DNA of 64,000 nt from Alphaproteobacteria bacterium (GTDB lineage: Bacteria; Pseudomonadota; Alphaproteobacteria; Bin95), in assembly GCA_963665325.3 (NCBI GenBank), contig CAXXWS020000002.1, positions 128,001 through 192,000 on the forward strand, read 5' to 3'. Position numbers and translations under genes: made by a program. The notes beneath the pieces were generated by a model. The model ran no database searches, was not told the origin of the DNA, and saw nothing but the letters and a program-made list of their open reading frames with translations. Each line of letters begins with the position of its first letter. Position 1 is the stretch's first letter. Below are positions 2,814 through 53,243 of the stretch, one piece after another.

Positions 2814-4988
2814 ATGATCCCCAACACGATCCCCCTGATCGGATACGCCGACCGGTGGTCGGTCCGCCCCGGCGAAACGATAGAGTTCAAGGTGAGCAGC
2901 CGTTCCGCGGAGCCCTACCGGGCGCGGCTGGTCCGGGTGATATCGGCCGACCCGAACCCCGCGGGTCCCGGTATCAAGGAAGAGGCGGTCGCCTCCGACA
3001 TCGAGGGAAGCTGGCCGTCGCGGGCGCAGGACGCCGCACTCGGCTCCTATGTCCGCGTGGAGGGCGCGCGGCTGGCGGCGGAGGCGCTGACGGTGTCCGC
3101 AACGATCTGGCCGACGCTGCCCGGCGGAGAGGGGCAGGGCATTGTGTCATGGCTCGGCGAGGCGGGCGGACTGGCGCTTCTGCTGGACGGCGAGCGCGGC
3201 GCCTGCGTCAGGGTTGCGACAGCGAATGGCGTCGAGACTGTGGCGGTGGGCAAGCCGCTGCTTGCGCGCGCCTGGTACCGGGTCTGGGCGAGCGTCGATC
3301 CCGCGACCGGCGCGGTCTCGGTCGGCCAGCAGGCGCTTCGTCCCTTCGCCAGGGTGGACGATACGGGCACGGCGAGCGCGCATGTGGACGCGCCGGCGAC
3401 GGGGATCGACGGCGACATCCTTATCGGCGCGGCGGGTGGAAATCCGGTCGAAGGCCATTTCAACGGCAAGATCGAGCGGCCGCGGATTGCGCGCGGTGCG
3501 GCGCCGGACGGCGACATCGTCTCGGACTGGGACTTCTCCCCCGAAATCTCTTCCCTCCGGGTCGTCGATGCGGGACCGAACGGGTGGCATGGCGAGCTGG
3601 TGAACCTGCCGACGCGGGGGATGAAGGGCTCCAACTGGAGCGGGCGAGAGCAGTGCTGGCGCCACGCGCCGGAGGAGTACGGCGCCATCCACTTCCACGA
3701 GGACGACCTCTACGACTGCGGCTGGGAGACCGACTTCTCTTACACGGTGCCGGCCGGCCTCCACAGCGGCTCCTACGCGGTCCGGCTCTCCTGCGGCGGG
3801 CATGAGGACATGATTCCCTTCTTCGTGCTGCCTCCGAGCGGGTCCCGGCGGACGCCGATCTGCGTGCTGATCCCGACCTTCACCTACACGGTGTACGGCA
3901 ACTATGCGCGGGGCGTGACGACCGAAGCCTATCTGGCTCGCGCGCAGGACTGGGGGGCACGCGATCTCACGGCCGACCGCCACAAGGAATACGGCCTTTC
4001 CACCTATGACCGCCATACCGACGGCAGCGGCATCTGCTTCGCCTCGCAGCGCCGTCCGGTGCTGACCCAGCGCTCCGGCTATATGAGCTATCTGGACGAG
4101 GCGGGCTCCGGGCTGCGCCACTATCCCGGCGACACCCATCTCATCGACTGGCTGGAGGAGAAGGGCTACGAGTTCGACCTCGTCACCGACCACGACCTGG
4201 ACCGCGAGGGCTACGACCTCATTTCGTCCTACCGCGTCGTGCTCACCGGCTCCCACCCCGAATATCACACCGCGAACACGCTCGACGCGCTCCAGCGCCA
4301 CTTGGATGAGGGCGGGCGGCTCATGTATCTCGGCGGCAACGGCTTCTACTGGCGGGTGGCGGTCAACGAGTCCGTGCCGGATGCCGTCGAGATCCGGCGG
4401 GGCGAGGGCGGCATCCGGGCCTGGGCGGCGGAGCCGGGCGAGTATTACAACGCGCTCGACGGGGAATATGGCGGCCTCTGGCGGCGCAACGACCGCCCGC
4501 CCCAGAAGCTCGCCGGGGTCGGCTTTTCCGCGCAGGGGCAGTTCGTCGGCTCATACTATGTGCGCGGCCCCGAAGCGGACGACCCGCGCGCCGCCTGGAT
4601 CTTCGAGGGCGTGCCGGACCGCATTCTCGGCAATTTCGGCTTTTCCGGCGGGGGCGCGGCCGGCTTCGAGCTCGACCGGGTGGACATCCGCCTGGGCTCG
4701 CCGCCCAACACGCTCGTGCTGGCGACCTCCGAACGGCACGGCGACACCTTCGTCGTCGTGCCGGAGGAACTGCTGACCCATCTCGTCACCTGGCCGGGCG
4801 AGCCGCCCGAGGCGCTGGTGCGCTCGAACCTGGCCTTCTTCGAGACCGCAGCGGGCGGGGCCGTCTTCTCCGTCGGCTCCATCACCTATTGCGGCAGCCT
4901 TTCCCACAACAATTACGACAACAACATCTCGCGTATCACGAAGAACGTCCTTGATCGCTTCGCCGATCCGGCGCCGTTCGAGGTGTGA
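2814..4988 (+). CDS. N,N-dimethylformamidase beta (large) subunit family protein
   Basis: 724 aa; motifs GYADRWSVRPGE, HFHEDDLYD, TYTVYGN, GLSTYDRH, GSHPEY, LMYLGGNGFYW, GAVFSVGSI. Confidence 0.85.
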   Translation: MIPNTIPLIGYADRWSVRPGETIEFKVSSRSAEPYRARLVRVISADPNPAGPGIKEEAVASDIEGSWPSRAQDAALGSYVRVEGARLAAEALTVSATIWPTLPGGEGQGIVSWLGEAGGLALLLDGERGACVRVATANGVETVAVGKPLLARAWYRVWASVDPATGAVSVGQQALRPFARVDDTGTASAHVDAPATGIDGDILIGAAGGNPVEGHFNGKIERPRIARGAAPDGDIVSDWDFSPEISSLRVVDAGPNGWHGELVNLPTRGMKGSNWSGREQCWRHAPEEYGAIHFHEDDLYDCGWETDFSYTVPAGLHSGSYAVRLSCGGHEDMIPFFVLPPSGSRRTPICVLIPTFTYTVYGNYARGVTTEAYLARAQDWGARDLTADRHKEYGLSTYDRHTDGSGICFASQRRPVLTQRSGYMSYLDEAGSGLRHYPGDTHLIDWLEEKGYEFDLVTDHDLDREGYDLISSYRVVLTGSHPEYHTANTLDALQRHLDEGGRLMYLGGNGFYWRVAVNESVPDAVEIRRGEGGIRAWAAEPGEYYNALDGEYGGLWRRNDRPPQKLAGVGFSAQGQFVGSYYVRGPEADDPRAAWIFEGVPDRILGNFGFSGGGAAGFELDRVDIRLGSPPNTLVLATSERHGDTFVVVPEELLTHLVTWPGEPPEALVRSNLAFFETAAGGAVFSVGSITYCGSLSHNNYDNNISRITKNVLDRFADPAPFEV

Positions 4989-6322: not shown

Positions 6323-7885
6323 TTAGCCCCAATCCGTCAGCGCCGCCGCTCCCGCGCCGGCGATGCGGCCGGAGACGAAGCATTCGGCGATGTTGCCGCC
6401 GGAGAGGTAGAGGTGGCCGAAGGCGCTGCCGAGCTCGCCCGCCGCATAGAGCCTCGGGATCGGCGTTCCGAAGACATTGACGATGCGCTGGCGGGTGTCG
6501 TGCACCGGCCCGCCCTGGGTGTTCGACACGACCGGCCATATCGGCGCGCCGTAATAGGGCGGCGTATCGACCGGGACCATGGTTCCCGGCGGGCGGCCGA
6601 AATCCTCGTCGCGCCCAGCCGCGCAGGCCTCGTTCCAGCGCGCGACGCTCGCCTCCACGGCGGCGGTGTCAAGGCCGAGCCCGGCGGCGAGTTCGGCCAG
6701 TGTGTCCGCCCGTGTGAGAACGCCCGATTCGACCTCCGCCAGATTGTCCTCGCTCCAGTCCAGCCTCACACCCTCGTCGTTGGAGGTCGGATGGCCCAGC
6801 GGGTAGAGCCGGCGGCCGTTGTCGTCGCAGATCATGACGCTCGGAATTCGCGGATAGTCCTGCCGGACCGTGTCGTAGAGCTGCATCTGCCGGTGGCCGG
6901 TGTCGTGGGTATAGGGCGGATATTCGTTCATGTAGCGCCGCCCGTCCCGGTCGAGCAGGATCCAGGCCATCTTCACGCCGGGGTCGTCATGTTCGCCACC
7001 TTCGGCGGGCCGCCAGTCGGGAAGCCGCTTGACCCTGATGCCGTAAGGATAGTCCGGATCGGCGCTCCGGAAGCCGTAGGCGCCGTGGAAGTGCCACATA
7101 TGCCAGAGCTGCGCGCCCAGGTCCTGGGCCATGGCGATGCCGTCCCCGGTGTTGTGCCGCGCGGCGGCGGGCAGGACCGGCCGGCCCTCCCAGAACTGGT
7201 CCTGCCGCTCGGCGCTGCCCTCGAACCCGCCGGAGGCGAGAACGACGCCGCGCCGCGCCCTGATCCGGCGGATGCCGTCCTGTCCCGCCACGGTTATGCC
7301 GTGGACTTCGGACCCGTCCTCCGAGGTGAGCATGCGCAGCGCGCGCGTGTTCAGCCGAACCTCGATGTCTTCGTTCCTGAGATTGTCGTCGAGGATCTTG
7401 AACAGCATCGGGCCGCCCGGCGCGCCATTGGCCCAGGGATAGACCGCCCGGGCATCGAAGTTCGGCACCGAGAGAACGGTCGTGTGATAGAATGTATTGA
7501 CCCCCGGCAGGGGGTAGTTGCCCCCGACCTTGCCGGCCACGACCGTGGTGCCGATCTCCGCATCGTTCACCCGGGCGAGGTCGCGCACATAGGGCTCGAG
7601 CAGCGTCATTCCCTCTGCGAGAGTGCGCGTGACGGCGTCCGGCGTCCGCCCGGCATTGGTGGCGGCCAGGTAGCTGTGGGCCTGCTGCGCATCGAGAGCG
7701 CACCGCACCGCGCCGTATGAGCAGATCGAAATGCCGCCCGGCACGCCGGTCTTCTCGATCAGCAGCACCCGCGCGCCGGCGCGCGCGGCTTCCAGCGCCG
7801 AAACGGACCCGGCAAATCCATAGCCGACCACGACGACGTCGAACGCCTCGTCATAGTCGCCCACCGAGCGGGGAATGCCCTCCAT
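6323..7885 (-). CDS. FAD-dependent oxidoreductase (fumarate reductase flavoprotein / 3-ketosteroid dehydrogenase-like, FAD_binding_2)
   Basis: DVVVVGYGFAG dinucleotide motif, VVLASGGF, NTGDGIAMA, TQGG, IPRLYAAGE. Confidence 0.8.
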   Translation of the reverse strand: MEGIPRSVGDYDEAFDVVVVGYGFAGSVSALEAARAGARVLLIEKTGVPGGISICSYGAVRCALDAQQAHSYLAATNAGRTPDAVTRTLAEGMTLLEPYVRDLARVNDAEIGTTVVAGKVGGNYPLPGVNTFYHTTVLSVPNFDARAVYPWANGAPGGPMLFKILDDNLRNEDIEVRLNTRALRMLTSEDGSEVHGITVAGQDGIRRIRARRGVVLASGGFEGSAERQDQFWEGRPVLPAAARHNTGDGIAMAQDLGAQLWHMWHFHGAYGFRSADPDYPYGIRVKRLPDWRPAEGGEHDDPGVKMAWILLDRDGRRYMNEYPPYTHDTGHRQMQLYDTVRQDYPRIPSVMICDDNGRRLYPLGHPTSNDEGVRLDWSEDNLAEVESGVLTRADTLAELAAGLGLDTAAVEASVARWNEACAAGRDEDFGRPPGTMVPVDTPPYYGAPIWPVVSNTQGGPVHDTRQRIVNVFGTPIPRLYAAGELGSAFGHLYLSGGNIAECFVSGRIAGAGAAALTDWG

Positions 7886-7891
7886 GGCCGG

Positions 7892-8788
7892 TCAGTTCGC
7901 CAGGATGTCGGCGGGCCTGACGCCGTGCCAACCGGCCTCGCGCTCGCTCCAGTAGATCGACTGGATGCGGCTCGTGACGATGCCGGCATGGCCGTTGCCG
8001 ATGGGCTTGCCGTTGACCCCGGTAATCGGCATGACCCCGCCCGCCGTGGTGCTGGTGAAGACCTCGCTTGCCTCCTCCAGTTCCTCGGGACGGATCTTGC
8101 GCAGCTCGAAAGGAATGCCCTCGCGCTCGCAGATCTCGCGCACCGACCGCCGCGTAATCCCTTCCAGCACATTGTAGTCGGGGCTCGCCACCCGGCCGTC
8201 CTTCACGACGAATATGTTGAAACCCGGCCCTTCCGAGAGGTAGCCGTCCGGCCCGGCGAGGATGGCGTCGTCGCAGTCATTGTCGTAGGCCTCGAGCCGC
8301 GCCTGCACGAGGTCGGCGCGGTTGTAGTTCTTGAAGCGCTGGTCGATGGCCTTCGACGACACGCGCTCGACACCGCTCACGAAGAGGGTTGCGCCGTTGC
8401 GGCACCTGTCCTCGCCCCATATCCAGACATAGGGGATGGCATAGACCGCGACGCTGGGCTTCAACCCGCGCGGGTCCCGGACGCCCATCGGCGGCACGCC
8501 GCGCGTGATCTGCATCTTCACATAGGTATTCGGAAGCCCGGTCCGCTCCACGCATTCCGCGCAAATCCGGCGCATCTCCTCGAAAGAGTAGGGGTTCTCC
8601 AGCCGGAACCCTTCGCAGGACCGCTGGAACCGCTCGAGATGCTCGTCCAGCATGAAGAACCAGTCGTTCCAGGTGGAGGTCACGTCGTAAACGCAGTCGC
8701 CCCAGACGAATCCGGTGTCGAAGATCGATATCCTGGCCTCTTCCGGGGCCATGTATTCTCCGTCGATGAAAGCGATTCCTTCGGACAT
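7892..8788 (-). CDS. PLP fold-IV aminotransferase, (R)-amine transaminase-like
   Basis: ISIFDTGF..GDCVYDV, HLERF, PLP lysine in RFKNYN, EGPGFNIF, LEGITR, STTAGGVMP. Confidence 0.85.
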   Translation of the reverse strand: MSEGIAFIDGEYMAPEEARISIFDTGFVWGDCVYDVTSTWNDWFFMLDEHLERFQRSCEGFRLENPYSFEEMRRICAECVERTGLPNTYVKMQITRGVPPMGVRDPRGLKPSVAVYAIPYVWIWGEDRCRNGATLFVSGVERVSSKAIDQRFKNYNRADLVQARLEAYDNDCDDAILAGPDGYLSEGPGFNIFVVKDGRVASPDYNVLEGITRRSVREICEREGIPFELRKIRPEELEEASEVFTSTTAGGVMPITGVNGKPIGNGHAGIVTSRIQSIYWSEREAGWHGVRPADILAN

Positions 8789-46332: not shown

Positions 46333-46835
46333 GGGTGCTTGTGTCCGTGGTCGTGCTCATGGCTGTGCCCGTGTCCATGGCTGTGGCCGTGGTCATGGCC
46401 TTGACCGGAATAGGCACCACCCTCGGGCTGGAAGGGCGCAACCGTTTCGGTGACGGAGCCTCCAAGGCTGCGCAGCATATCCGCCAGAACGTGGTCCGGG
46501 CGGATCAGGATCGCATCGGCACGGATCTCCGCCGGTGTGTGCCGGTTGCCGAGATGCCAGGCCAGACGCGCCGCCAGTTCCGGCGTCGCCGCCGTAATCC
46601 GGAGTATCGGCTCCGGCCTGGCGGCAACTTCCACCCAGGTCCCGTCAGTGCAGCGCAAGCCGTCGCCTTCCGCCATGGCCACGGCCTTGGGCAAGTCGAG
46701 CAGGATCGCCTCGCCGGCTGTGGTTTCCAGCTTGACGCGGCGCCGGTGCCGGTCGTCGAAGGCCAGGCTCACACGACCGGCCGCGTCCTCGTGCGGCCAA
46801 TGCCCCGCAGGGCGATGTTCGATAGCGCTACGCAT
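46329..46835 (-). CDS. ureE: Urease nickel metallochaperone
   Basis: AWHLGNRH, DHVL, PFQPEGGAY, His-rich tail. Confidence 0.95.
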   Translation of the reverse strand: MRSAIEHRPAGHWPHEDAAGRVSLAFDDRHRRRVKLETTAGEAILLDLPKAVAMAEGDGLRCTDGTWVEVAARPEPILRITAATPELAARLAWHLGNRHTPAEIRADAILIRPDHVLADMLRSLGGSVTETVAPFQPEGGAYSGQGHDHGHSHGHGHSHEHDHGHKHP

Positions 46836-46839
46836 CGGC

Positions 46840-47649
46840 CTAGAACAGGAAGTAGCGCTGCGCCATGGACAGCACCTCTGCCGGCTCGCAGGTAAGCAAC
46901 ACTCCGTCGGCCCGCACCTCGTAGGTTTCAGGGTCGATCTCGACATCGGGCATGAGTTCGTTCAGGACCATGTCTCCCTTTCCGATGGTTCGCGTGCGGC
47001 GAACGGCTTCCAGCCGCCGGCCGGTATCGAAGCCGGCGTCGAGGCCTGCCTCGCTGACGAAGGTAACGGACGTTGCTTGTCGCGCCCGCCCGAAGCTCGC
47101 AAACATCGGCCGGAAATGCTCGGGCTGCGGTGTCGGGATGGAGGCGTTGGGGTCTCCCATGACCGCCGCCGCTATCATGCCACCCTTCAGCACCAGGTCG
47201 GGTTTCACGCCGAAGAACGCTGGCGACCAGACGACAAGGTCTGCAAGCTTTCCGGCCTCGACCGACCCGATATGGTCCGCCATGCCGTGCGCGATGGCGG
47301 GATTGATCGTGTATTTGGCGATGTAGCGCCGGGCGCGCAGATTGTCGTTTTCGCCGCGCTCGCCCGCCAGCCGCCCGAATTGCCGCTTCATCTTGTCGGC
47401 GGTTTGCCAGGTCCGGATCGCCACTTCGCCCACCCGGCCCATCGCCTGGCTGTCCGAGGCGATGATCGAGAATGCCCCCATGTCGTGCAGGAGGTCTTCG
47501 GCGGCGATGGTCTCCTTGCGGATACGGCTCTCGGCAAACGCCACGTCCTCGGCGATGCGCGGATCCAGATGGTGGCAGACCATCAGCATGTCGAGATGTT
47601 CATCGACGGTGTTGACCGTGTAAGGGCGTGTCGGGTTGGTCGAGGAGGG
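46840..47649 (-). pseudogene. ureC: Urease alpha subunit, 3' part (interrupted)
   Basis: [43 protein letters not shown]. Confidence 0.95.
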
Positions 47650-47733
47650 TGAGTGTGCTCTCGGTATCTGATGGCGGGATGGTCACGTTGTTCGATGGTT
47701 TTCAGGCGTCGGGCCGGGCGTGACGGCGGGGGT

Positions 47734-47820
47734 GTCGGACGGCCGTCGGCGCGTCAAGCCGCTTCGCGGCTCCTGCGCTGCGCTCCGGCCCTTCGGGTGA
47801 CCCGCCGCCGTCCCTCCGAC
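47734..47820. other. Large branched hairpin in the non-coding end of the element
   Basis: 47734-47756 pairs with 47798-47820 (19/23), enclosing gccgc-ttc-gcggc and ccc-ttc-ggg mini-hairpins. Confidence 0.6.
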
Positions 47821-47895
47821 GGAGTGCATCCATGGCCGTAAGCAAGCTTCCGGCCACGGGCCGGCCGCTTTACGCAGTGTGACAATGGGAGCGGT

Positions 47896-47957
47896 GTTAC
47901 CCGTTACCGTTACCCTCTCTCCCTAGGGGTTCGAGGCGGTAACGGTTTTCGGTAACG
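47896..47957. repeat. Iteron-like GTTAC/GTAAC repeat cluster
   Basis: Three GTTAC (47896, 47903, 47909) and two GGTAACG (47938, 47951) around the palindrome ccctaggg at the helicase stop. Confidence 0.65.
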
Positions 47958-48921
47958 TGTCCCTGCGGTCGTTGCCGTTGAGGGCGGCGAGGCGGTATCC
48001 GCCTTCGGATGCGCGCTCGACGCGTCCTTCGCGGACGAGCCTGTGCAGCGCCTCGGCGACGGTTGCGGGCCGGGTTGCCGCGCGCTCGCGGATCCGGCGC
48101 TGGGAGAGCGGCGCGTCGGCGTCGGCGAGGGCCTGCAGGATGCGCCGTTCGGGGGTATCCGGCTCCGGCGCCTGGTCTTCCGGCGTCTCGCGCAACCGCA
48201 GGGCGGGGCGCTCGTCGTCGTCGGCGAGTTCGATCTCGAGGTCTTCGAGGCCAGGGGCGTCGCGATGCTCGACGGTCATGAGGATCTGGCGGTCTCGCCG
48301 GCGCAGGTACAGATTCGAATCGCCCCAGGCGTGAAGTTCGCTGCTGCCGCGCAGCGCCTGCCCGGGCCGGGAGCCGCCGCTCTTTCGTGCGTGATGGACG
48401 AGGAGGACGGCGGTTTCGAAGCGGCGCTGTATGTCGCGCAGGAAGCCCAGCATGGGGGCGACCTCGGCGACGGTATTTTCGTCGACGCCGTGCAGGCGCA
48501 CGAGGGGGTCGAGGACGACGAGGCGGGGTGAGACGCGCTCCACCGTCTCGACCAGGCGCTGGCGATCGGCGCGATGGTCGAGACGCAGCGTGGGCACGTC
48601 GATGACGGCGATGTCGAGGGTCTCGAACGCGGTGCCTGCCGCCTTTGCGATGCCCTGGAGGCGTGCGCGCACGATATGGCCGGCGTCCTCGGCGGCGAAC
48701 AGCAGCACGGGGCCGCTTGCGGCGGGACGGAAGTGGCGCAGGCAGGGGACGCCGGCGGCGACCGCGACGGCGATGTCGAGTGCGAGGAAGGATTTGCCGC
48801 ACTTGGGCTCGCCGCCGACGATGCCGACGCCCTGCTCGGACCACAACGCCTCGACCATCCAGCGGCGCGCCTGGGGGCGCTCTTCGAGCTCCGCCGGCGC
48901 CCGTGTCGGGAAGCCCTTCAC
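47923..48921 (-). CDS. RepA-like (AAA_25, RecA/DnaB superfamily) helicase with C-terminal winged HTH
   Basis: GGEPKCGKS, LVVLDPL, LVHHARK, LRGSSELHAWGD; C-terminal SQRRIRERAA...AEALHRLVREGRV; GTG coupled to the upstream stop. Confidence 0.8.
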   Translation of the reverse strand: MKGFPTRAPAELEERPQARRWMVEALWSEQGVGIVGGEPKCGKSFLALDIAVAVAAGVPCLRHFRPAASGPVLLFAAEDAGHIVRARLQGIAKAAGTAFETLDIAVIDVPTLRLDHRADRQRLVETVERVSPRLVVLDPLVRLHGVDENTVAEVAPMLGFLRDIQRRFETAVLLVHHARKSGGSRPGQALRGSSELHAWGDSNLYLRRRDRQILMTVEHRDAPGLEDLEIELADDDERPALRLRETPEDQAPEPDTPERRILQALADADAPLSQRRIRERAATRPATVAEALHRLVREGRVERASEGGYRLAALNGNDRRDTLPKTVTASNP

Positions 48922-49751
48922 CGCCGCGCCCTCCTCGGCTTGGCGGGTTCGCCCAGGGTCTCGATGAAGAGCTTCTCGTCGAGGACCTCGCGCTCCTTCT
49001 CGGCGGCGGCGGCGAGCAGGGCGTCGGCCATGACGGTGAGCGCCCGCGGGTTGCCGTCGGCATGGGCGACCAGGGTGTCCTTGAGGCCCGCGGTCATGAG
49101 GCCGGGATTGCCGGCCTGCTCGATCAGATGGTCGAGCAGGGCCGCGAGGTCGCCGGCCTCGGCCTTGGTCATGACCAGGCGCTGGCGGATGCGCGAGGCG
49201 ATGGGCTGCAGATCGGGCTGGCGGAGCTTGTCGAGCAGGCGCGTGTCGCCGGCGAGGACGACCGAGAGGATGGCGCGCGAGTCGAAGTCGGTCGAAGCCA
49301 GCAGGCGGATCTCGGAGAACACCGAGGGCAGCAGCTCCTGGGCCTCGTCGACGAGCACGACGGGGCGCATGCGGGTATCGTCGACATGGGCGAGCCAGCG
49401 CTCGCGCAGGCTTTTGAAGCTGGCCCAGCGGTTGTTGTACATCAGGTCGACGCCGAACATCTCGCCGATCTCGCGGTAGAAGTCGGACAGCCGGGAGGAG
49501 GGATGGGTGATGGCGGCGATGCTGAGCCCCTCGCAGCGGCCGAGACGGTCGGCGAGCAGGCGCAACGCCACACTCTTTCCGGCGCCGGGCTCGCCGGCGA
49601 TCAAGGCGAAGCCGCCCTGGCGCACCAGGTGGCGCTCGATCCTGAGGCAGAAGCTGTCGACGGCAGGCGTCGCCATGAGACTGTCGACCGGCAGGTCGGT
49701 GGCGAAGGGGTTCCACTTGAGCCCGTAGAAGGTGAGCAGTTCCCGGTTCAT
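48918..49751 (-). CDS. ExeA-like AAA ATPase (probable transposition helper)
   Basis: YGLKWNPF, GEPGAGKS, VVLVDEAQ, GNPRAL; ATGA-coupled to the transposase. Confidence 0.85.
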   Translation of the reverse strand: MNRELLTFYGLKWNPFATDLPVDSLMATPAVDSFCLRIERHLVRQGGFALIAGEPGAGKSVALRLLADRLGRCEGLSIAAITHPSSRLSDFYREIGEMFGVDLMYNNRWASFKSLRERWLAHVDDTRMRPVVLVDEAQELLPSVFSEIRLLASTDFDSRAILSVVLAGDTRLLDKLRQPDLQPIASRIRQRLVMTKAEAGDLAALLDHLIEQAGNPGLMTAGLKDTLVAHADGNPRALTVMADALLAAAAEKEREVLDEKLFIETLGEPAKPRRARR

Positions 49752-51223
49752 GGCGCATCTCCCCGATCTTCGTCCTCGCCCGGACCGGGCGTCTTGTCAT
49801 GGGGCAGCCAGGCCGGCGGCAGGCCGGTTGCGGCCTGGGCGTCGAGCATGCCCTTGAGCAGCGGCGGAAGTTCCCCCGTCCCCGCGCCGCCATTGCCATC
49901 GTTGCCGCCGGGGCCGGCGGGACGGCGCACGCCATCGGCGTTGCCGCGCTTGTCGAGGGGGTACAGCGTGCACAGGCGCTCGCCGCCTCGACCGTCGATC
50001 AGATCGACGCTGGCGAGGTTCCAGCGCGCGTAACGGATCCAGGCCTCGCGCAGGTGGCGCCACGGCTGTGGCACCTGGTAGCGGATGCCCTCGACCGAGA
50101 CGGTGCCGTCCGAGCGCCTGAGCGTGCGCTTCCTGGTGATGCGGAAGGCCGCCTTGAGCTCGGCCGAGCCGGGGCAGGATCTCGACGCGTCGACGCTCCC
50201 GGCCAGGCGTTGATGCGGCGTCATGCCGAGCTCGCGGTGCTTGCGGCGGTGATAGTCCTGCTCCAGCCAGGCGATGGTGGCGTCGTTGAGCATCTTCAAG
50301 GTAAGCGCGTCGACGCCTTCGAGCTGAGCCATCAGGCGCGATTCGACCGTGCCCCAGAACGACTCGATCTTGCCGTTCTGATGGGGGCTGTAAGCGAGCG
50401 TCGTGACCCCCGCGATGCCGAGCCGGTGCAACCCCTCCTCGACCTCGCCCGCGGTCATCGCCGCGCCGTTGTCGGTCAGCAGGGACCTCGGCAGACCGCG
50501 CTTCATGAAGGCCTGGCAAAGGCCGTGGACGAACACCTCGGCGGTCTCGGCGAGGTACCACTGAAGGTGGCAGCCGAGGCGCGAGTGGTCGTCGAGGAAG
50601 CCGAGCAGGATCGGCGTCTTCCACTCGCCCGAGGCGGTCAGCACGCGACGCTTGGCGCTGTGCATGTCGGCGTGCCACAGGGCGTGAGAGCGCGAGACCT
50701 CGTAGCTCAATACCTCGCGGGCTTCGACCGCCGGCCTGGCCTCGCTCTCATGCCACTTGCGCCGGCGCTTGCGTACCAGCCCGCGAGCCCGCATCGCCCG
50801 GGTCAGCGTCGCGTAGGACGGTATCGGGCCGAGCTCGGGATCGGCCTCGACCCGCGCGGCCAGATTCTCGTGATGAAGCTGCGCCGACCACGACGGATGC
50901 GCCCGGTACTGCTCGTGCAGCGCCTCGATCAGCGTCGGCGACATCGCGCGCGGGCGCCCGGCATCGGCGCGCGGGCGCCGCTTGAGCGCCCCCACCGGAT
51001 CGTTGTCCGCCGCCCGCGCCTGGTAGTACCAGCGCTCGATCGTGGACACCGCGAAGCGCACCCGGCCCTTGCCGGACGGGTGATCCCACTCGCGTTCGGC
51101 AAGCCGCTCAAGCTCGGCGTGCAGCCGCCCCGCCGGCGGCGGCGAGGCCAGAAGCGGCCCGACCACCGCGAAGCGCAACCGCGCCCACCGGTCGCGACGC
51201 TCGCTCCCGTCGTTGCTGTTCAT
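49748..51223 (-). CDS. DDE transposase/integrase (rve core, N-terminal HTH, Mu-like C-terminus)
   Basis: LWHAD, DDHSR, LLTDNGA, NGKIESFW, DGTVSVEGIRY. Confidence 0.92.
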   Translation of the reverse strand: MNSNDGSERRDRWARLRFAVVGPLLASPPPAGRLHAELERLAEREWDHPSGKGRVRFAVSTIERWYYQARAADNDPVGALKRRPRADAGRPRAMSPTLIEALHEQYRAHPSWSAQLHHENLAARVEADPELGPIPSYATLTRAMRARGLVRKRRRKWHESEARPAVEAREVLSYEVSRSHALWHADMHSAKRRVLTASGEWKTPILLGFLDDHSRLGCHLQWYLAETAEVFVHGLCQAFMKRGLPRSLLTDNGAAMTAGEVEEGLHRLGIAGVTTLAYSPHQNGKIESFWGTVESRLMAQLEGVDALTLKMLNDATIAWLEQDYHRRKHRELGMTPHQRLAGSVDASRSCPGSAELKAAFRITRKRTLRRSDGTVSVEGIRYQVPQPWRHLREAWIRYARWNLASVDLIDGRGGERLCTLYPLDKRGNADGVRRPAGPGGNDGNGGAGTGELPPLLKGMLDAQAATGLPPAWLPHDKTPGPGEDEDRGDAP

Positions 51224-51271
51224 TCCGGCATCCCCCTCGCTGCTTCGTGGAGGTGCCGATGATGCGGTGCC

Positions 51272-51886
51272 CTATCCGTGCATCATAGAAACGCTTTCTG
51301 CGGGCGAAGCCGGACCTGCGCCGAGCGCGCAAAAGCCGGTCCACGGCATCAGCCAGACCAGGCTCCGCAGCAGCCGCGAGCGGAAGCCACGGCCCCGCAT
51401 GATGCGCAGCAGCCGGCGCAGCGGCGCCTCTTCGGGCGGCGCCGCCAGCTCGCCCCGTCTCGCCTGCCACTCCCGGGTCAGCGGGAAGGCTTCCAGCCAC
51501 CAGCGCCGCCAGCGCTTCAGCGTCGAGGCCGGAACCCCGCACCGCCGCGCGATCGTCTGCAACCGCGCGCCGCCGGCCACAGCCAGCGCACTCACCACAA
51601 GGAACAGCGCCCCGACGTAAAAGCGCCTGCCGAAGAAACGCACCGACGGCGGCTTCACGCGGCGTCGGCACACCGAACAGCACAGGCTGAAGCGCCGAAC
51701 GTCGTTCCGAAGATTCGCCGCCAGACCGTGCGGCTTGCGCGGGTAGCTCGCGCTGTGAAGCGCGCCGCCGCAGCGCGGGCAACCCGCCGCCCGGCACGCC
51801 TCCGCCTCGGCCGCGTCGACCTGCTTCAGAAAATCCCAAACCCGGGCGTTGGAGAGATTGGAGTGCCGGAACAGCTTGTGCGACAT
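51272..51886 (-). CDS. Zn-ribbon plus HTH protein, first gene of the element
   Basis: CPRCG...CCSVC and LQTIARRCGVPASTLKRWRRWW. Confidence 0.7.
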   Translation of the reverse strand: MSHKLFRHSNLSNARVWDFLKQVDAAEAEACRAAGCPRCGGALHSASYPRKPHGLAANLRNDVRRFSLCCSVCRRRVKPPSVRFFGRRFYVGALFLVVSALAVAGGARLQTIARRCGVPASTLKRWRRWWLEAFPLTREWQARRGELAAPPEEAPLRRLLRIMRGRGFRSRLLRSLVWLMPWTGFCALGAGPASPAESVSMMHG

Positions 51887-52032
51887 TGGGGCCGTCTCAG
51901 GTTGATGTCACTGTCACCGAGACAAGCCCTCCGGCGGCCTTCTTGCAAGATCGCCGGGGGCACCCAATCCAAAACCTCGATTAATCCGAGCCGATCAGCC
52001 CCTGATCGCCGCTGAAAGCCTGCGCCCGCTCA

Positions 52033-52924
52033 AGGGGATCACATTGGCGAGCCCGCAGACCTTGATGATGTCCGGCGCGTGGCCGCCGCCGGCTCCTTCG
52101 GTATGAAAGGCGTGGATCGTGCGGTCCTTGAAGGCGGCGACGGTGTGCTCGACGAAGCCCGACTCGTTGAGTGTGTCGGTATGGATCATCACCTGGACGT
52201 CCATCGCGTCGGCGACGCCGAGGCAGGTGTCGATGGCCGCGGGCGTTGTGCCCCAGTCCTCGTGGAGCTTGAGCGCGCACGCGCCCGCCCGCACCTGCTC
52301 CTCCAGCGCGGCCGGAAGGCTTGCGTTGCCCTTGCCCGCGAAGCCCAGGTTCATGGCGAAGCCGTCGGCCGCCTCGATCATGCGCTGCAGGTGCCAGGGA
52401 CCCGGCGTGCAGGTCGTGGCATTGGTGCCGGTCGCGGGACCGGTGCCGCCGCCCAGCATCGATGTGATGCCGGATGCGAGCGCCTCCTCGATCTGCTGCG
52501 GGCAGATGAAGTGGATATGGCAGTCGAAGCCGCCGGCGGTGACGATCTTGCCTTCGCCGGCGACGATCTCCGTGCCCGGACCGATGACGATGTCCACCCC
52601 GTCCTGGATATCGGGGTTGCCCGCCTTGCCGACCGCCTGGATACGTCCGTCCCGGATGCCGATATCCGCCTTGACGACACCCCAATGGTCGAGGATCAGC
52701 GCATTCGTCACCACCGTGTCGGCGGAGCCCTCGGCCCGCGTCGCCTGCGACTGGCCCATGCCGTCGCGGATAACCTTGCCACCCCCGAATTTGACCTCGT
52801 CGCCATAGGCGGTGAAGTCGCGCTCGACCTCGATGAACAGCTCGGTATCGGCGAGGCGGACCCGGTCGCCCACGGTCGGACCGAACATGTCTGCATAGTC
52901 GCGGCGGGGGATCGCGTAGGCCAT
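52033..52924 (-). pseudogene. ureC: Urease alpha subunit, 5' part (interrupted)
   Basis: [48 protein letters not shown], ending at ...ANVIP. Confidence 0.95.
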
Positions 52925-52925
52925 G

Positions 52926-53243
52926 TCAGCCCTCCCGGTCGAGCGCGCCCATGACCCGCCCGTTGAAGCCGAGGGCGCGCCGGACGCCGCGATAGGGAAC
53001 CAGCGTCGCCAGGCGTGTTTGACCCGGCTCGAAGCGCATGGCTGTGCCGGCCGGGATGTCGAGGCGCCACCCCCGCGCCTGTTCTCGATCGAATTGCAGC
53101 GCCGGATTAACTTCGAAGAAATGGAAATGGCTGCCGACCTGAACAGGCCGGTCGCCGCCGTTCGCAACCTCGATCTCCACAGTCTCGAGGCCCCGGTTGA
53201 GCAGGAGCTCGCCCTCGGCAGTCATAATTTCCCCCGGAATCAT
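52926..53243 (-). CDS. ureB: Urease beta subunit
   Basis: [32 protein letters not shown]. Confidence 0.97.

Follow-up and report, generated by a model that had tools for sequence, protein, structure and literature searches.

The question raised by this locus is what kind of mobile element has interrupted the urease gene ureC in the genome of an Alphaproteobacteria bacterium of the lineage Bin95, and why that element encodes an ATPase resembling the plasmid helicase RepA. The window analyzed here is a stretch of 64,000 nucleotides (positions 128,001 to 192,000 of the forward strand of contig CAXXWS020000002.1, GenBank assembly GCA_963665325.3), and its numbering is used for all coordinates given without a contig name. 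The insert in ureC is very probably an active and recently amplified transposon composed of two parts, a Tn6049-type core and an accessory helicase module. The first part, about 3.1 kilobases (kb) long, would supply a zinc-ribbon and helix-turn-helix (HTH) protein, an IS481/Mu-type DDE transposase that has a long extension at its C-terminus, and an AAA_22 ATPase. The second part, about 1.2 kb at the 3′ end, would supply a ring-type ATPase of the RepA/DnaB fold with a winged-helix tail, followed by a structured element of 130 nucleotides. The features of the transposon and of the interrupted gene, with the basis of each assignment in brackets, are:

47650–52032, minus strand: whole transposon, with all genes on the minus strand (same exact ends in 23 full copies)
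52033–52924, minus strand: 5′ part of ureC, codons 1 to about 297 (open reading frame and in-silico restoration)
52033–52036, no strand: target-site duplication AGGG at the orf1-side end (flank sequence)
52009–52032, minus strand: orf1-side terminal repeat, which in gene sense reads TGAGCGGGCGCAGGCTTTCAGCGG
51956–51960, no strand: run of five G in the non-coding leader upstream of orf1 (six G in the 22 other full copies)
51886–51272, minus strand: orf1, 204 residues, zinc ribbon and HTH, DUF6431-like (Pfam, alignment, homology)
51223–49748, minus strand: orf2, 491 residues, DDE transposase with HTH_32 and rve domains (Pfam, NCBIfam, PHROG)
49751–48918, minus strand: orf3, 277 residues, AAA_22 ATPase, 'gspA'/ExeA-like (Pfam, NCBIfam, PHROG)
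48921–47923, minus strand: orf4, 332 residues, predicted RepA/DnaB-fold ATPase with a C-terminal winged helix (Pfam, PDB, model)
47734–47863, minus strand: structured element of about 130 nucleotides behind orf4, a hairpin and a three-way junction (covariation)
47650–47698, plus strand: orf4-side terminal repeat TGAGTGTGCTCTCGGTATCTGATGG and a second TGTTCGATGG box (repeat comparison)
47646–47649, no strand: target-site duplication AGGG at the orf4-side end (flank sequence)
46840–47649, minus strand: 3′ part of ureC including the stop codon (open reading frame and in-silico restoration)

The insert spans 4383 base pairs (bp) and, read as the plus strand, starts with TGAG and ends with CTCA. 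The left junction at 47646–47660 reads ...gtcgaggAGGG followed by TGAGTGTGCTC..., and the right junction at 52022–52042 reads ...GCGCCCGCTCA followed by AGGGgatcac.... The in-silico removal of the insert together with one AGGG restores a single minus-strand ureC frame of 1698 nucleotides including the stop codon, which encodes 565 residues of a urease alpha subunit; the neighboring genes encode urease accessory proteins and the small subunit. The precise insertion with its AGGG flanks had been recognized in a preliminary description of the locus, whose span of 47646–52036 corresponds to the insert plus both copies of AGGG. One urease gene is inactivated by the insertion of the element. The genome has a second ureC-like gene at C1:1660734–1662434, with 49% identity to the restored ureC, and urease activity therefore need not be lost.

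The genome, which comprises five contigs with a total of 5.58 Mb and 67% G+C, was searched with blastn and contains 23 full-length copies of the element and one interrupted copy. Further copies with different flanks, which the preliminary description had suggested looking for, are thus present. Of the full-length copies, 21 are identical and 4384 bp long. The copy in ureC has one G fewer in the G6 run of the leader upstream of orf1, and contigs of the multi-copy element from public sequencing runs show the extra G behind position 51955. In the copy at C1:503215–507597, the loss of one base pair from a G run inside orf2 has shifted the frame of the transposase C-terminus. Perfect direct repeats of 4–6 bp flank 19 of the 23 full copies: they are 4 bp long in eight copies, 5 bp in nine, and 6 bp in two. 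The other four copies have no perfect duplication, and two of these are flanked by 5-bp repeats with one mismatch. The interrupted copy is flanked by the 5-bp repeat CCATG. Therefore, the duplication of 4 bp, which had been taken as fixed, holds for ureC and varies between 4, 5, and 6 bp across the genome. A logo of the 19 intact sites shows no target consensus beyond G+C richness, which is 75% in the duplications.

The flanking repeats of two copies, C4:930514–934897 and C2:25283–29666 (GGTCG and CCGT), are reciprocally swapped, so that they cross-match over 5 bp and 4 bp. Among 552 non-self pairs of left and right flanks, four match over at least 4 bp, and two of the four belong to this swap. 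It could result from recombination between copies or replicons, from a cointegrate-type product, or from an assembly switch at the repeat. The interrupted copy is split at element position 274–277 by an insertion sequence of 2070 bp (C1:2290873–2292942) that encodes a 604-residue transposase, has CCCAAGTTTAAC... inverted ends and CTAG flanks, and is present in the genome in 12 identical copies and one rearranged copy on contig C2. Seven of the 23 full copies are located within 120 kb of each other (C1:1982775–2101890) at distances of about 10–30 kb. The cluster could reflect local hopping or a permissive region, and it speaks against strong target immunity over such distances. Diverged fragments of the orf1-side end, the 3′ part of orf4, and the tail, with identities of 79–86%, are found at C1:446362–446548 and C1:452255–452348 and probably remain from an older relative. 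Proteins 100% identical to orf1 (P0271 and P0272) are recorded on nine and five contigs, the largest of which measure 7.2 Mb and 5.0 Mb, and near-identical elements may therefore occur in other assemblies.

The ends of the element contain repeated boxes, which are presumed to be transposase-binding sites. The boxes TATCTGATGG and TGTTCGATGG occupy positions 16–25 and 40–49 from the orf4-side end, and relatives share this layout. The terminus TGAGCGnGCGC... is common to relatives from other assemblies that have the same core (type A, defined below).

The four genes are all on the minus strand, with 48 nucleotides between orf1 and orf2, and with orf2/orf3 and orf3/orf4 overlapping in ATGA and GTGA, respectively. 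The overlaps are among the last three genes, which had been described as translationally coupled, and domain matches support the order of zinc-ribbon/HTH protein, DDE transposase, ExeA-like AAA ATPase, and RepA-like ATPase that had been put forward for this co-oriented transposon. A promoter scan returned no sigma-70-like sites, and terminator-like sites are no commoner than in shuffled sequences. Residues 101–132 of orf1 match HTH_23 in Pfam with 27.1 bits. An alignment of orf1 with its homologues, 35 sequences all of the same length, shows C36, C39, C70, and C73 as invariant, and these constitute a CxxC...CxxC zinc ribbon; C31, C69, C186, and H44 are likewise invariant. The proximity of orf1 to DUF6431 clusters in the ESM Atlas may serve as a lead only. 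An AlphaFold2 model of orf1 built with the 35 homologues has a predicted local distance difference test score (pLDDT) of 52.7, which is too low for fold comparison.

The best curated model for orf2 in NCBIfam is that of IS481, with 123.9 bits against a cut-off of 224; the models of IS3, IS21, and IS630 score lower, IS21 reaching 45.1 bits against a cut-off of 160. Residues 41–432 match the transposase family phrog_310 (E-value 2.4e-40), whereas the Mu-transposase domains of Pfam are not reached at an E-value ≤0.01. The sequence contexts LWHAD, LTDNG, and NGKIE around D186, D251, and E287 are kept in the DDE protein of Tn6049 and align with the cores of retroviral integrases, which are the only matches of orf2 in a PDB sequence search (best E-value 0.00068). 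These three residues are likely to be the catalytic triad. The orf3 protein matches AAA_22 (E-value 5.1e-20), and resembles PEP-CTERM/ExeA-type ATPases and the family phrog_296, 'DNA transposition protein' (E-value 1.4e-23). It has no significant PDB sequence match, that to MuB (8xvb) being weak (E-value 0.056), and matches neither IstB nor TniB of Pfam at an E-value ≤0.01. The Pfam and NCBIfam matches of the four proteins include no TnsA, TniQ/TnsD, TniB/TnsC-type, or resolvase family, and PADLOC assigns the four proteins to no defence family beyond P-loop and winged-helix noise.

A blastn search of plasmids returned 24 records, 20 of them from Cupriavidus, with about 64% identity in the DDE and ATPase genes; the similarity extends over about a third of the element. 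The region of plasmid pMOL30 encodes, in this order, a 181-residue 'transposase', a 479-residue 'IS481 family transposase', a 277-residue 'AAA family ATPase', and a 71-residue hypothetical protein. In BLASTP comparisons, orf1, orf2, and orf3 are 40% (E-value 3e-30), 51% (1e-151), and 52% (2e-98) identical to the proteins of Tn6049. Tn6049 is described as a 3.5-kb element with 12 copies in C. metallidurans CH34, all of which carry the ATPase gene 'gspA' and one of which interrupts pbrU (PMC2864759). On the Pseudomonas aeruginosa plasmid pHS87a, its inverted repeats are reported as imperfect and 12 bp long, and its direct repeats as 4 bp long (PMC4739549). The name was in print by 2010, and a statement of 2018 says that its transposition module "could not be categorized"; where the authors refer to the Tn5053 family, they assign Tn6048 to it and not Tn6049. 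In the sections of a 2026 paper that name Tn6049, it is only mentioned in deletion maps (PMC13192273). Judged from the protein identities, the core of the element in ureC is of the Tn6049 type, which is named but mechanistically blank in these accounts. The earlier suggestion of a poorly described family thus stands for the mechanism and falls for the name. Three core genes of the element match the named Tn6049, and the helicase gene is absent there.

The fourth gene is the unusual part of the element. It starts at a GTG codon behind the ribosome-binding site GAGGAGGG and overlaps the stop codon of orf3; orf4 is therefore assigned 332 codons rather than the 670-residue frame that starts with ATG. 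Residues ~10–235 match AAA_25 of Pfam (E-value 7.9e-36), and the C-terminus has weak winged-helix matches. The sole PDB sequence match is the RSF1010 RepA helicase (1g8y, E-value 2.4e-8). An AlphaFold2 model of orf4 computed from 60 relatives has a pLDDT of 90.4, and Foldseek finds the cores of DnaB, RepA, RadA, and Rad51, with a probability of 1.00 for DnaB and RepA. The best target-normalized template modelling (TM) scores are those of RepA, 0.70–0.75. The residues K43, E78, D138, R142, E148, R191, and R220, which include the Walker A lysine and the Walker B aspartate, are invariant in the 60 relatives. Therefore, by its modeled fold and its conserved catalytic residues, orf4 is an ATPase of the superfamily 4 (SF4) RepA/DnaB type, for which DNA unwinding is predicted. 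When residues 1–250 of orf4 were modeled in three copies, the self-association score was 0.58 against 0.00 for the best control; the mark was calibrated on proteins solved as pairs of one chain, 20 of 30 of which reach it, and on proteins solved as single chains (1 of 23), whereas the orf4 job used three copies and its own alignment. In these models, an N-terminal arm packs on the neighboring subunit, at least 83% of the contacts are shared between runs, and the pLDDT of the partner is at least 78. Because RepA and DnaB rings have already been solved, the score shows likeness rather than binding.

Relatives of orf4 are numerous: one search returned more than 7800 database relatives, and a cluster search matched 489 clusters at an E-value ≤1e-30 and 38189 at ≤1e-3. 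The best 120 relatives are 72–86% identical to orf4, besides the window's own protein, which is matched at 100%, and many of them are on contigs of about 4.3–4.5 kb. In a sample of 400 other genomes of the phylum, three encode orf4-like proteins. Helicases or primases of the replicative type are not known from small bacterial DDE transposons. No literature was found on AAA_25 proteins in DDE transposons, on a RepA-like helicase accompanying a transposase and AAA_22, or on transposon-encoded helicases or primases in replicative transposition.

The surroundings of orf4 homologues were compared in 80 loci from 17 assemblies, which were chosen by close similarity to orf4 and whose titles name Alphaproteobacteria, Chloroflexota, Dehalococcoidia, Acidimicrobiales, and Acidobacteria. 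In all 80, an AAA_22 gene is directly upstream of the orf4 homologue on the same strand, and the orf4 homologue is the last or next-to-last gene of the transposon. The cores are of two types. Type A, in 47 loci, has orf1, orf2, and orf3 homologues that are 63–87%, 74–87%, and 72–91% identical to those in the window where covered. By contrast, in the 33 loci of type B the DDE protein is 31–34% and the AAA_22 protein 25–28% identical (tblastn), whereas orf4 is 72–81% identical; type B has no orf1 homologue and has TGTTGT... ends. Pairwise BLASTP between the two types gives 78% identity for AAA_25, 29% for DDE, and 28% for AAA_22. The DNA homology to type B starts at position 3096–3106 in gene sense, 6–16 nucleotides before the start of orf4 (3112), and in five of seven type B elements it ends at 4302–4315 of 4383, which excludes the type-specific terminal 70–80 nucleotides; in the other two (L051 and L072) only the orf4 stretch is matched, to about 4050. 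These limits indicate that orf4 and its tail of about 195 nucleotides are a module of about 1.2 kb that is exchanged as a block between very different cores. The preliminary description had treated the four genes as one unit; however, orf4 and its tail are also carried by a transposon with an unrelated-looking core. Single long-read assemblies contain dozens of copies of both types.

The stretch behind orf4 differs between sister elements. In ten of the 80 loci, all of type A (L041, L043, L049, L052, L053, L070 at 7103–7972, L071, L073, L084, and L092), a 289-residue DUF3991+Toprim_2 gene directly follows orf4 and replaces the structured element; the resulting five-gene element is about 5.2 kb long (L070 and L071). 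Two genomes from a different family of the phylum (G050 and G158) contain a third type of element, bounded by TGTTACG... inverted repeats on a 5.5-kb contig. It encodes a small open reading frame, a DDE protein with rve, LZ_Tnp_IS481, and Mu-transpos_C_2 domains, an AAA_22 protein, an AAA_25 protein 42% identical to orf4, and a 380-residue Zn_ribbon_DnaG+Toprim protein. The two loci are L101 (G158:C87) and L102 (G050:C26:1–5600). The first 119 bases of the latter contig recur at the ends of four other contigs, and thus a repeat abuts the element. A helicase gene followed by a primase gene is the signature of a replication module.

The non-coding tail of the module is its best conserved stretch, with 86–90% identity to type B. 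An alignment of 14 distinct copies contains 48 pairs in which 97.3% of the cells are paired, compared with 25–48% when the partners are slid; eight pairs show compensatory change, a count that none of 500 shuffles reaches. The G–U pairs are on the gene-sense strand. The covariance model R1 scores 139 bits at the element in the window, and Rfam has no match at an E-value ≤1 in window positions 47400–52300 on either strand. A 33-base pattern taken from the invariant core is matched exactly by at least 120 metagenome contigs, and all 80 of the matching contigs tested with the covariance model fit it. In 70 distinct rows, which were selected by the core pattern and aligned by fitting to the model, 94.8% of the cells pair, and 34 of 45 pairs have compensatory changes, with none of 500 shuffles as high. 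The core of the three-way junction is invariant, and the outer stems covary highly. In 150 other genomes of the phylum, R1 has one weak hit (37.7 bits, E-value 9.8e-4), and in this genome the hits of a 16-mer of the motif core, with at most two mismatches allowed, look like chance wherever they fall outside copies of the element. The structured element has also been seen behind a gene for a 521-residue RecD/AAA_30-like helicase that is unrelated to orf4 (L080:1347–1517 on the minus strand, L142, and L166). It may represent a new and widely dispersed motif of RNA or single-stranded DNA.

A two-part transposon of this composition suggests the following course of events. The orf2 transposase would bind the repeated boxes in both ends, cut at the terminal TG...CA, and join the 3′ ends to a target whose strands are cut 4–6 bp apart, which here was ureC. 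The orf3 protein would be an ATP-dependent activator of target DNA, like MuB, TniB, and TnsC, and orf1 would bind DNA as a cofactor or regulator. The module would then help to replicate or repair the transposition intermediate through helicase loading and priming at the element. The data themselves establish the ends, the copy number, the duplications, the empty site, the homologies, the exchange of the module, the fold, and the covariation. By contrast, we infer the biochemical roles, the pathway (replicative or otherwise), and a connection of the helicase to priming and to the structured element from protein families and gene positions. The structured element stands where sister transposons have a primase gene, and this position suggests that it may be a priming or loading signal.

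Each part of this account has a competing explanation. An assembly artifact of the 4.4-kb repeat could mimic an insertion in ureC, because 24 copies allow misjoins and because the flanks of the copies at C4:930514 and C2:25283 are reciprocally swapped. The locus was compared with public sequencing runs by means of a 701-bp junction probe, parts of which are present in 20 listed runs, and four runs were aligned to positions 46800–53200. Flank contigs of run X1 match with no mismatches; however, they reach only 28 and 29 letters beyond the junctions on the two sides, which is the usual k-1 overlap at a repeat, and since this is below the 31-letter bridging rule, they are not counted as bridging. 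By contrast, contigs of runs X4 and X6 join 47645 directly to 52033 and skip 4387 bases, the insert plus one AGGG, with four letters that fit both sides. These contigs represent the empty ureC site with a single AGGG, the allele for which a search had been proposed. The contig from X6 is 3390 bp long and has 18 and 59 differences from the window on its two sides, and it therefore derives from a relative rather than from the same clone. Contiguous flanks that lack exactly the insert and one duplicate, together with the perfect 4-bp duplication and the exact restoration of the frame, exclude a misassembly for practical purposes, and an artifact is very improbable. In the metagenome-like runs X1, X4, and X6, summed contig depth on the element reaches tens of times the value of the ureC flanks; depth is not a copy number. 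The many variant positions show that these runs contain several diverged lineages of the element side by side. In the RNA run X15, four short contigs, one 95–99% and three 90–95% alike, fall on ureC and on parts of the element; they do not demonstrate transcription of this copy. It could also be argued that the transposon is an ordinary member of IS481, IS21, or Tn7/Tn5053, or the remnant of a Mu-like prophage. The best NCBIfam model for orf2, the RefSeq label 'IS481 family transposase' of the Tn6049 protein, and the PHROG matches to phage transposition proteins point in this direction. However, the IS481 and IS21 models are both far below their cut-offs, orf3 lacks an IstB or TniB match at an E-value ≤0.01, the 4.4 kb include no TnsA, TniQ, resolvase, or phage structural genes, the duplications are 4–6 bp long instead of a fixed 5 bp, and the module of Tn6049 is reported as one that its authors could not categorize. 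A classical family is accordingly an improbable home for the element.

The role of the helicase module within the two-part transposon is less certain. It is tentatively regarded as a helper of replication or repair, an assignment whose plausibility, judged from gene order and protein families, ranges from doubtful to not far below even. Several observations weigh against such a role. Tn6049 has reached 12 copies in CH34 without a helicase gene, and the module is therefore dispensable for core transposition. The 19 full copies with intact duplications fit simple insertion and are unlike the products of intramolecular replicative transposition. A Pfam scan of the proteins of the element detects no resolvase, and an end-to-end circle junction is absent among the listed contig joints, although contigs are a poor test for it. 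No measured helicase, primase, or transposition activity was found in the literature for any member. The association of the structured element with the helicase is not exclusive: in 52 metagenome loci with at least 500 nucleotides upstream, the preceding gene is orf4-like in 11, RecD-like in 2, and neither in 39. Ten upstream frames from the latter group include, by Pfam, a large terminase, AAA_21, acetyl-CoA synthetase, DUF2442, an IS110 transposase, and the DNA polymerase III beta clamp (dnaN), and four have no match. It is also quite possible, short of being probable, that the module is selfish or passenger cargo without a role in transposition, such as a remnant of plasmid or integrative-element replication or maintenance, or a winged-helix regulator. 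Multiplication of Tn6049 without the module, the large number of orf4 relatives, and the occurrence of the structured element alone in many contexts agree with cargo, as does the movement of the module between unrelated cores, which rules out a dependence of the module on specific contacts with a single transposase. Against cargo, orf4 directly follows the AAA_22 gene in every one of the 80 loci (a sample picked by close orf4 similarity) and overlaps its stop codon here, and the distant relative with 42% identity is again inside a DDE/AAA_22 transposon. PADLOC shows no defence family for orf4, only weak winged-helix hits (E-value 0.0018).

The insertion in ureC provides base-exact ends, a duplication, and the gene content for an abundant Tn6049-type family that has never been dissected, and the 24 near-identical copies make the element a major influence on the shape of this genome. 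Members of the family form a natural series, from no module in Tn6049, to a helicase with the structured element, to a helicase with a Toprim protein, and to a helicase with a DnaG-like primase, which makes the role of the module testable. It is conceivable, though rather unlikely, that these are DDE transposons with their own replication-initiation kit, in which a ring helicase is translationally coupled to the transposition ATPase and is followed by a Toprim/DnaG-type primase gene or, in the copy in ureC, by the structured element, which would signal to host enzymes where to load the helicase or to prime. In that case, priming for the replication or repair of the strand-transfer intermediate would come from the transposon itself, with less reliance on host restart proteins, which could explain the 20 to 40 or more copies per genome and the spread across phyla. 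The structured element is notable on its own, because of its strong covariation, the lack of an Rfam family, and its exact core in at least 120 metagenome contigs.

Comparison with known systems places the element beside several families of transposons. IS481 provides the best-scoring curated model for orf2; however, the score is little more than half of the cut-off, and IS481 elements have a single gene and are about 1 kb long. With IS21 (IstA/IstB), the element shares the two-protein logic of DDE transposase and ATPase, overlapping genes, and variable short duplications, whereas its orf2 is far below the IS21 cut-off and its helper is an AAA_22 protein without an IstB match. Tn5053/Tn402 and Tn7 likewise have TG...CA ends and combine a DDE protein with an AAA+ regulator from the broad clan to which AAA_22 also belongs; by contrast with the TniA, TniB, TniQ, and TniR or TnsA–E sets of these transposons, the element has no TniQ/TnsD, TnsA, resolvase, TniB match, or site consensus. 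The MuA/MuB system resembles it in an HTH-bearing DDE protein with a C-terminal extension that is paired with an AAA+ 'DNA transposition protein' (phrog_310 and phrog_296), in TG...CA ends with repeated internal boxes, and in the weak match of orf3 to MuB; the Mu-transposase C-terminal domains of Pfam are matched by the second and third element types. The differences are the lack of phage genes, the length of only 4.4 kb, an orf2 below the threshold of the Pfam Mu domains, and duplications of 4–6 bp, compared with 5 bp for Mu.

The likeness of orf4 to RSF1010 RepA (PDB 1g8y, 1nlf, and 1olo) comprises the sequence match, the best fold match, and the packing of the N-terminal arm. However, orf4 has an additional C-terminal winged helix, the identity is only 19%, and orf4 is encoded in a transposon, whereas RepA is encoded beside the plasmid origin with RepB and RepC. 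Self-synthesizing transposons (casposons and Polintons) offer an analogy only, in that they join an integrase or transposase with element-encoded replication proteins; they are reported to carry a DNA polymerase, and casposons a Cas1 integrase, whereas the element has a helicase without a polymerase and its sisters have a Toprim primase. The closest relative is Tn6049, which has a co-linear set of a small zinc/HTH protein, a DDE protein, and a 277-residue AAA ATPase, imperfect terminal repeats starting with TG, and short direct repeats, the published 4 bp being derived from one copy. Like the element in ureC, it is present in many copies per genome and inserts into genes, such as pbrU. Tn6049 differs in its length of 3.5 kb compared with 4383 bp, in its published terminal sequence TGTGCaTaAGCA compared with TGAGCGnGCGC, and in a 71-residue open reading frame without a Pfam match at the place of the helicase module. 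Because the 332-residue AAA_25 gene and the structured tail extend beyond the 3.5-kb plan of Tn6049, the element is filed as a variant of Tn6049 rather than as Tn6049 itself.

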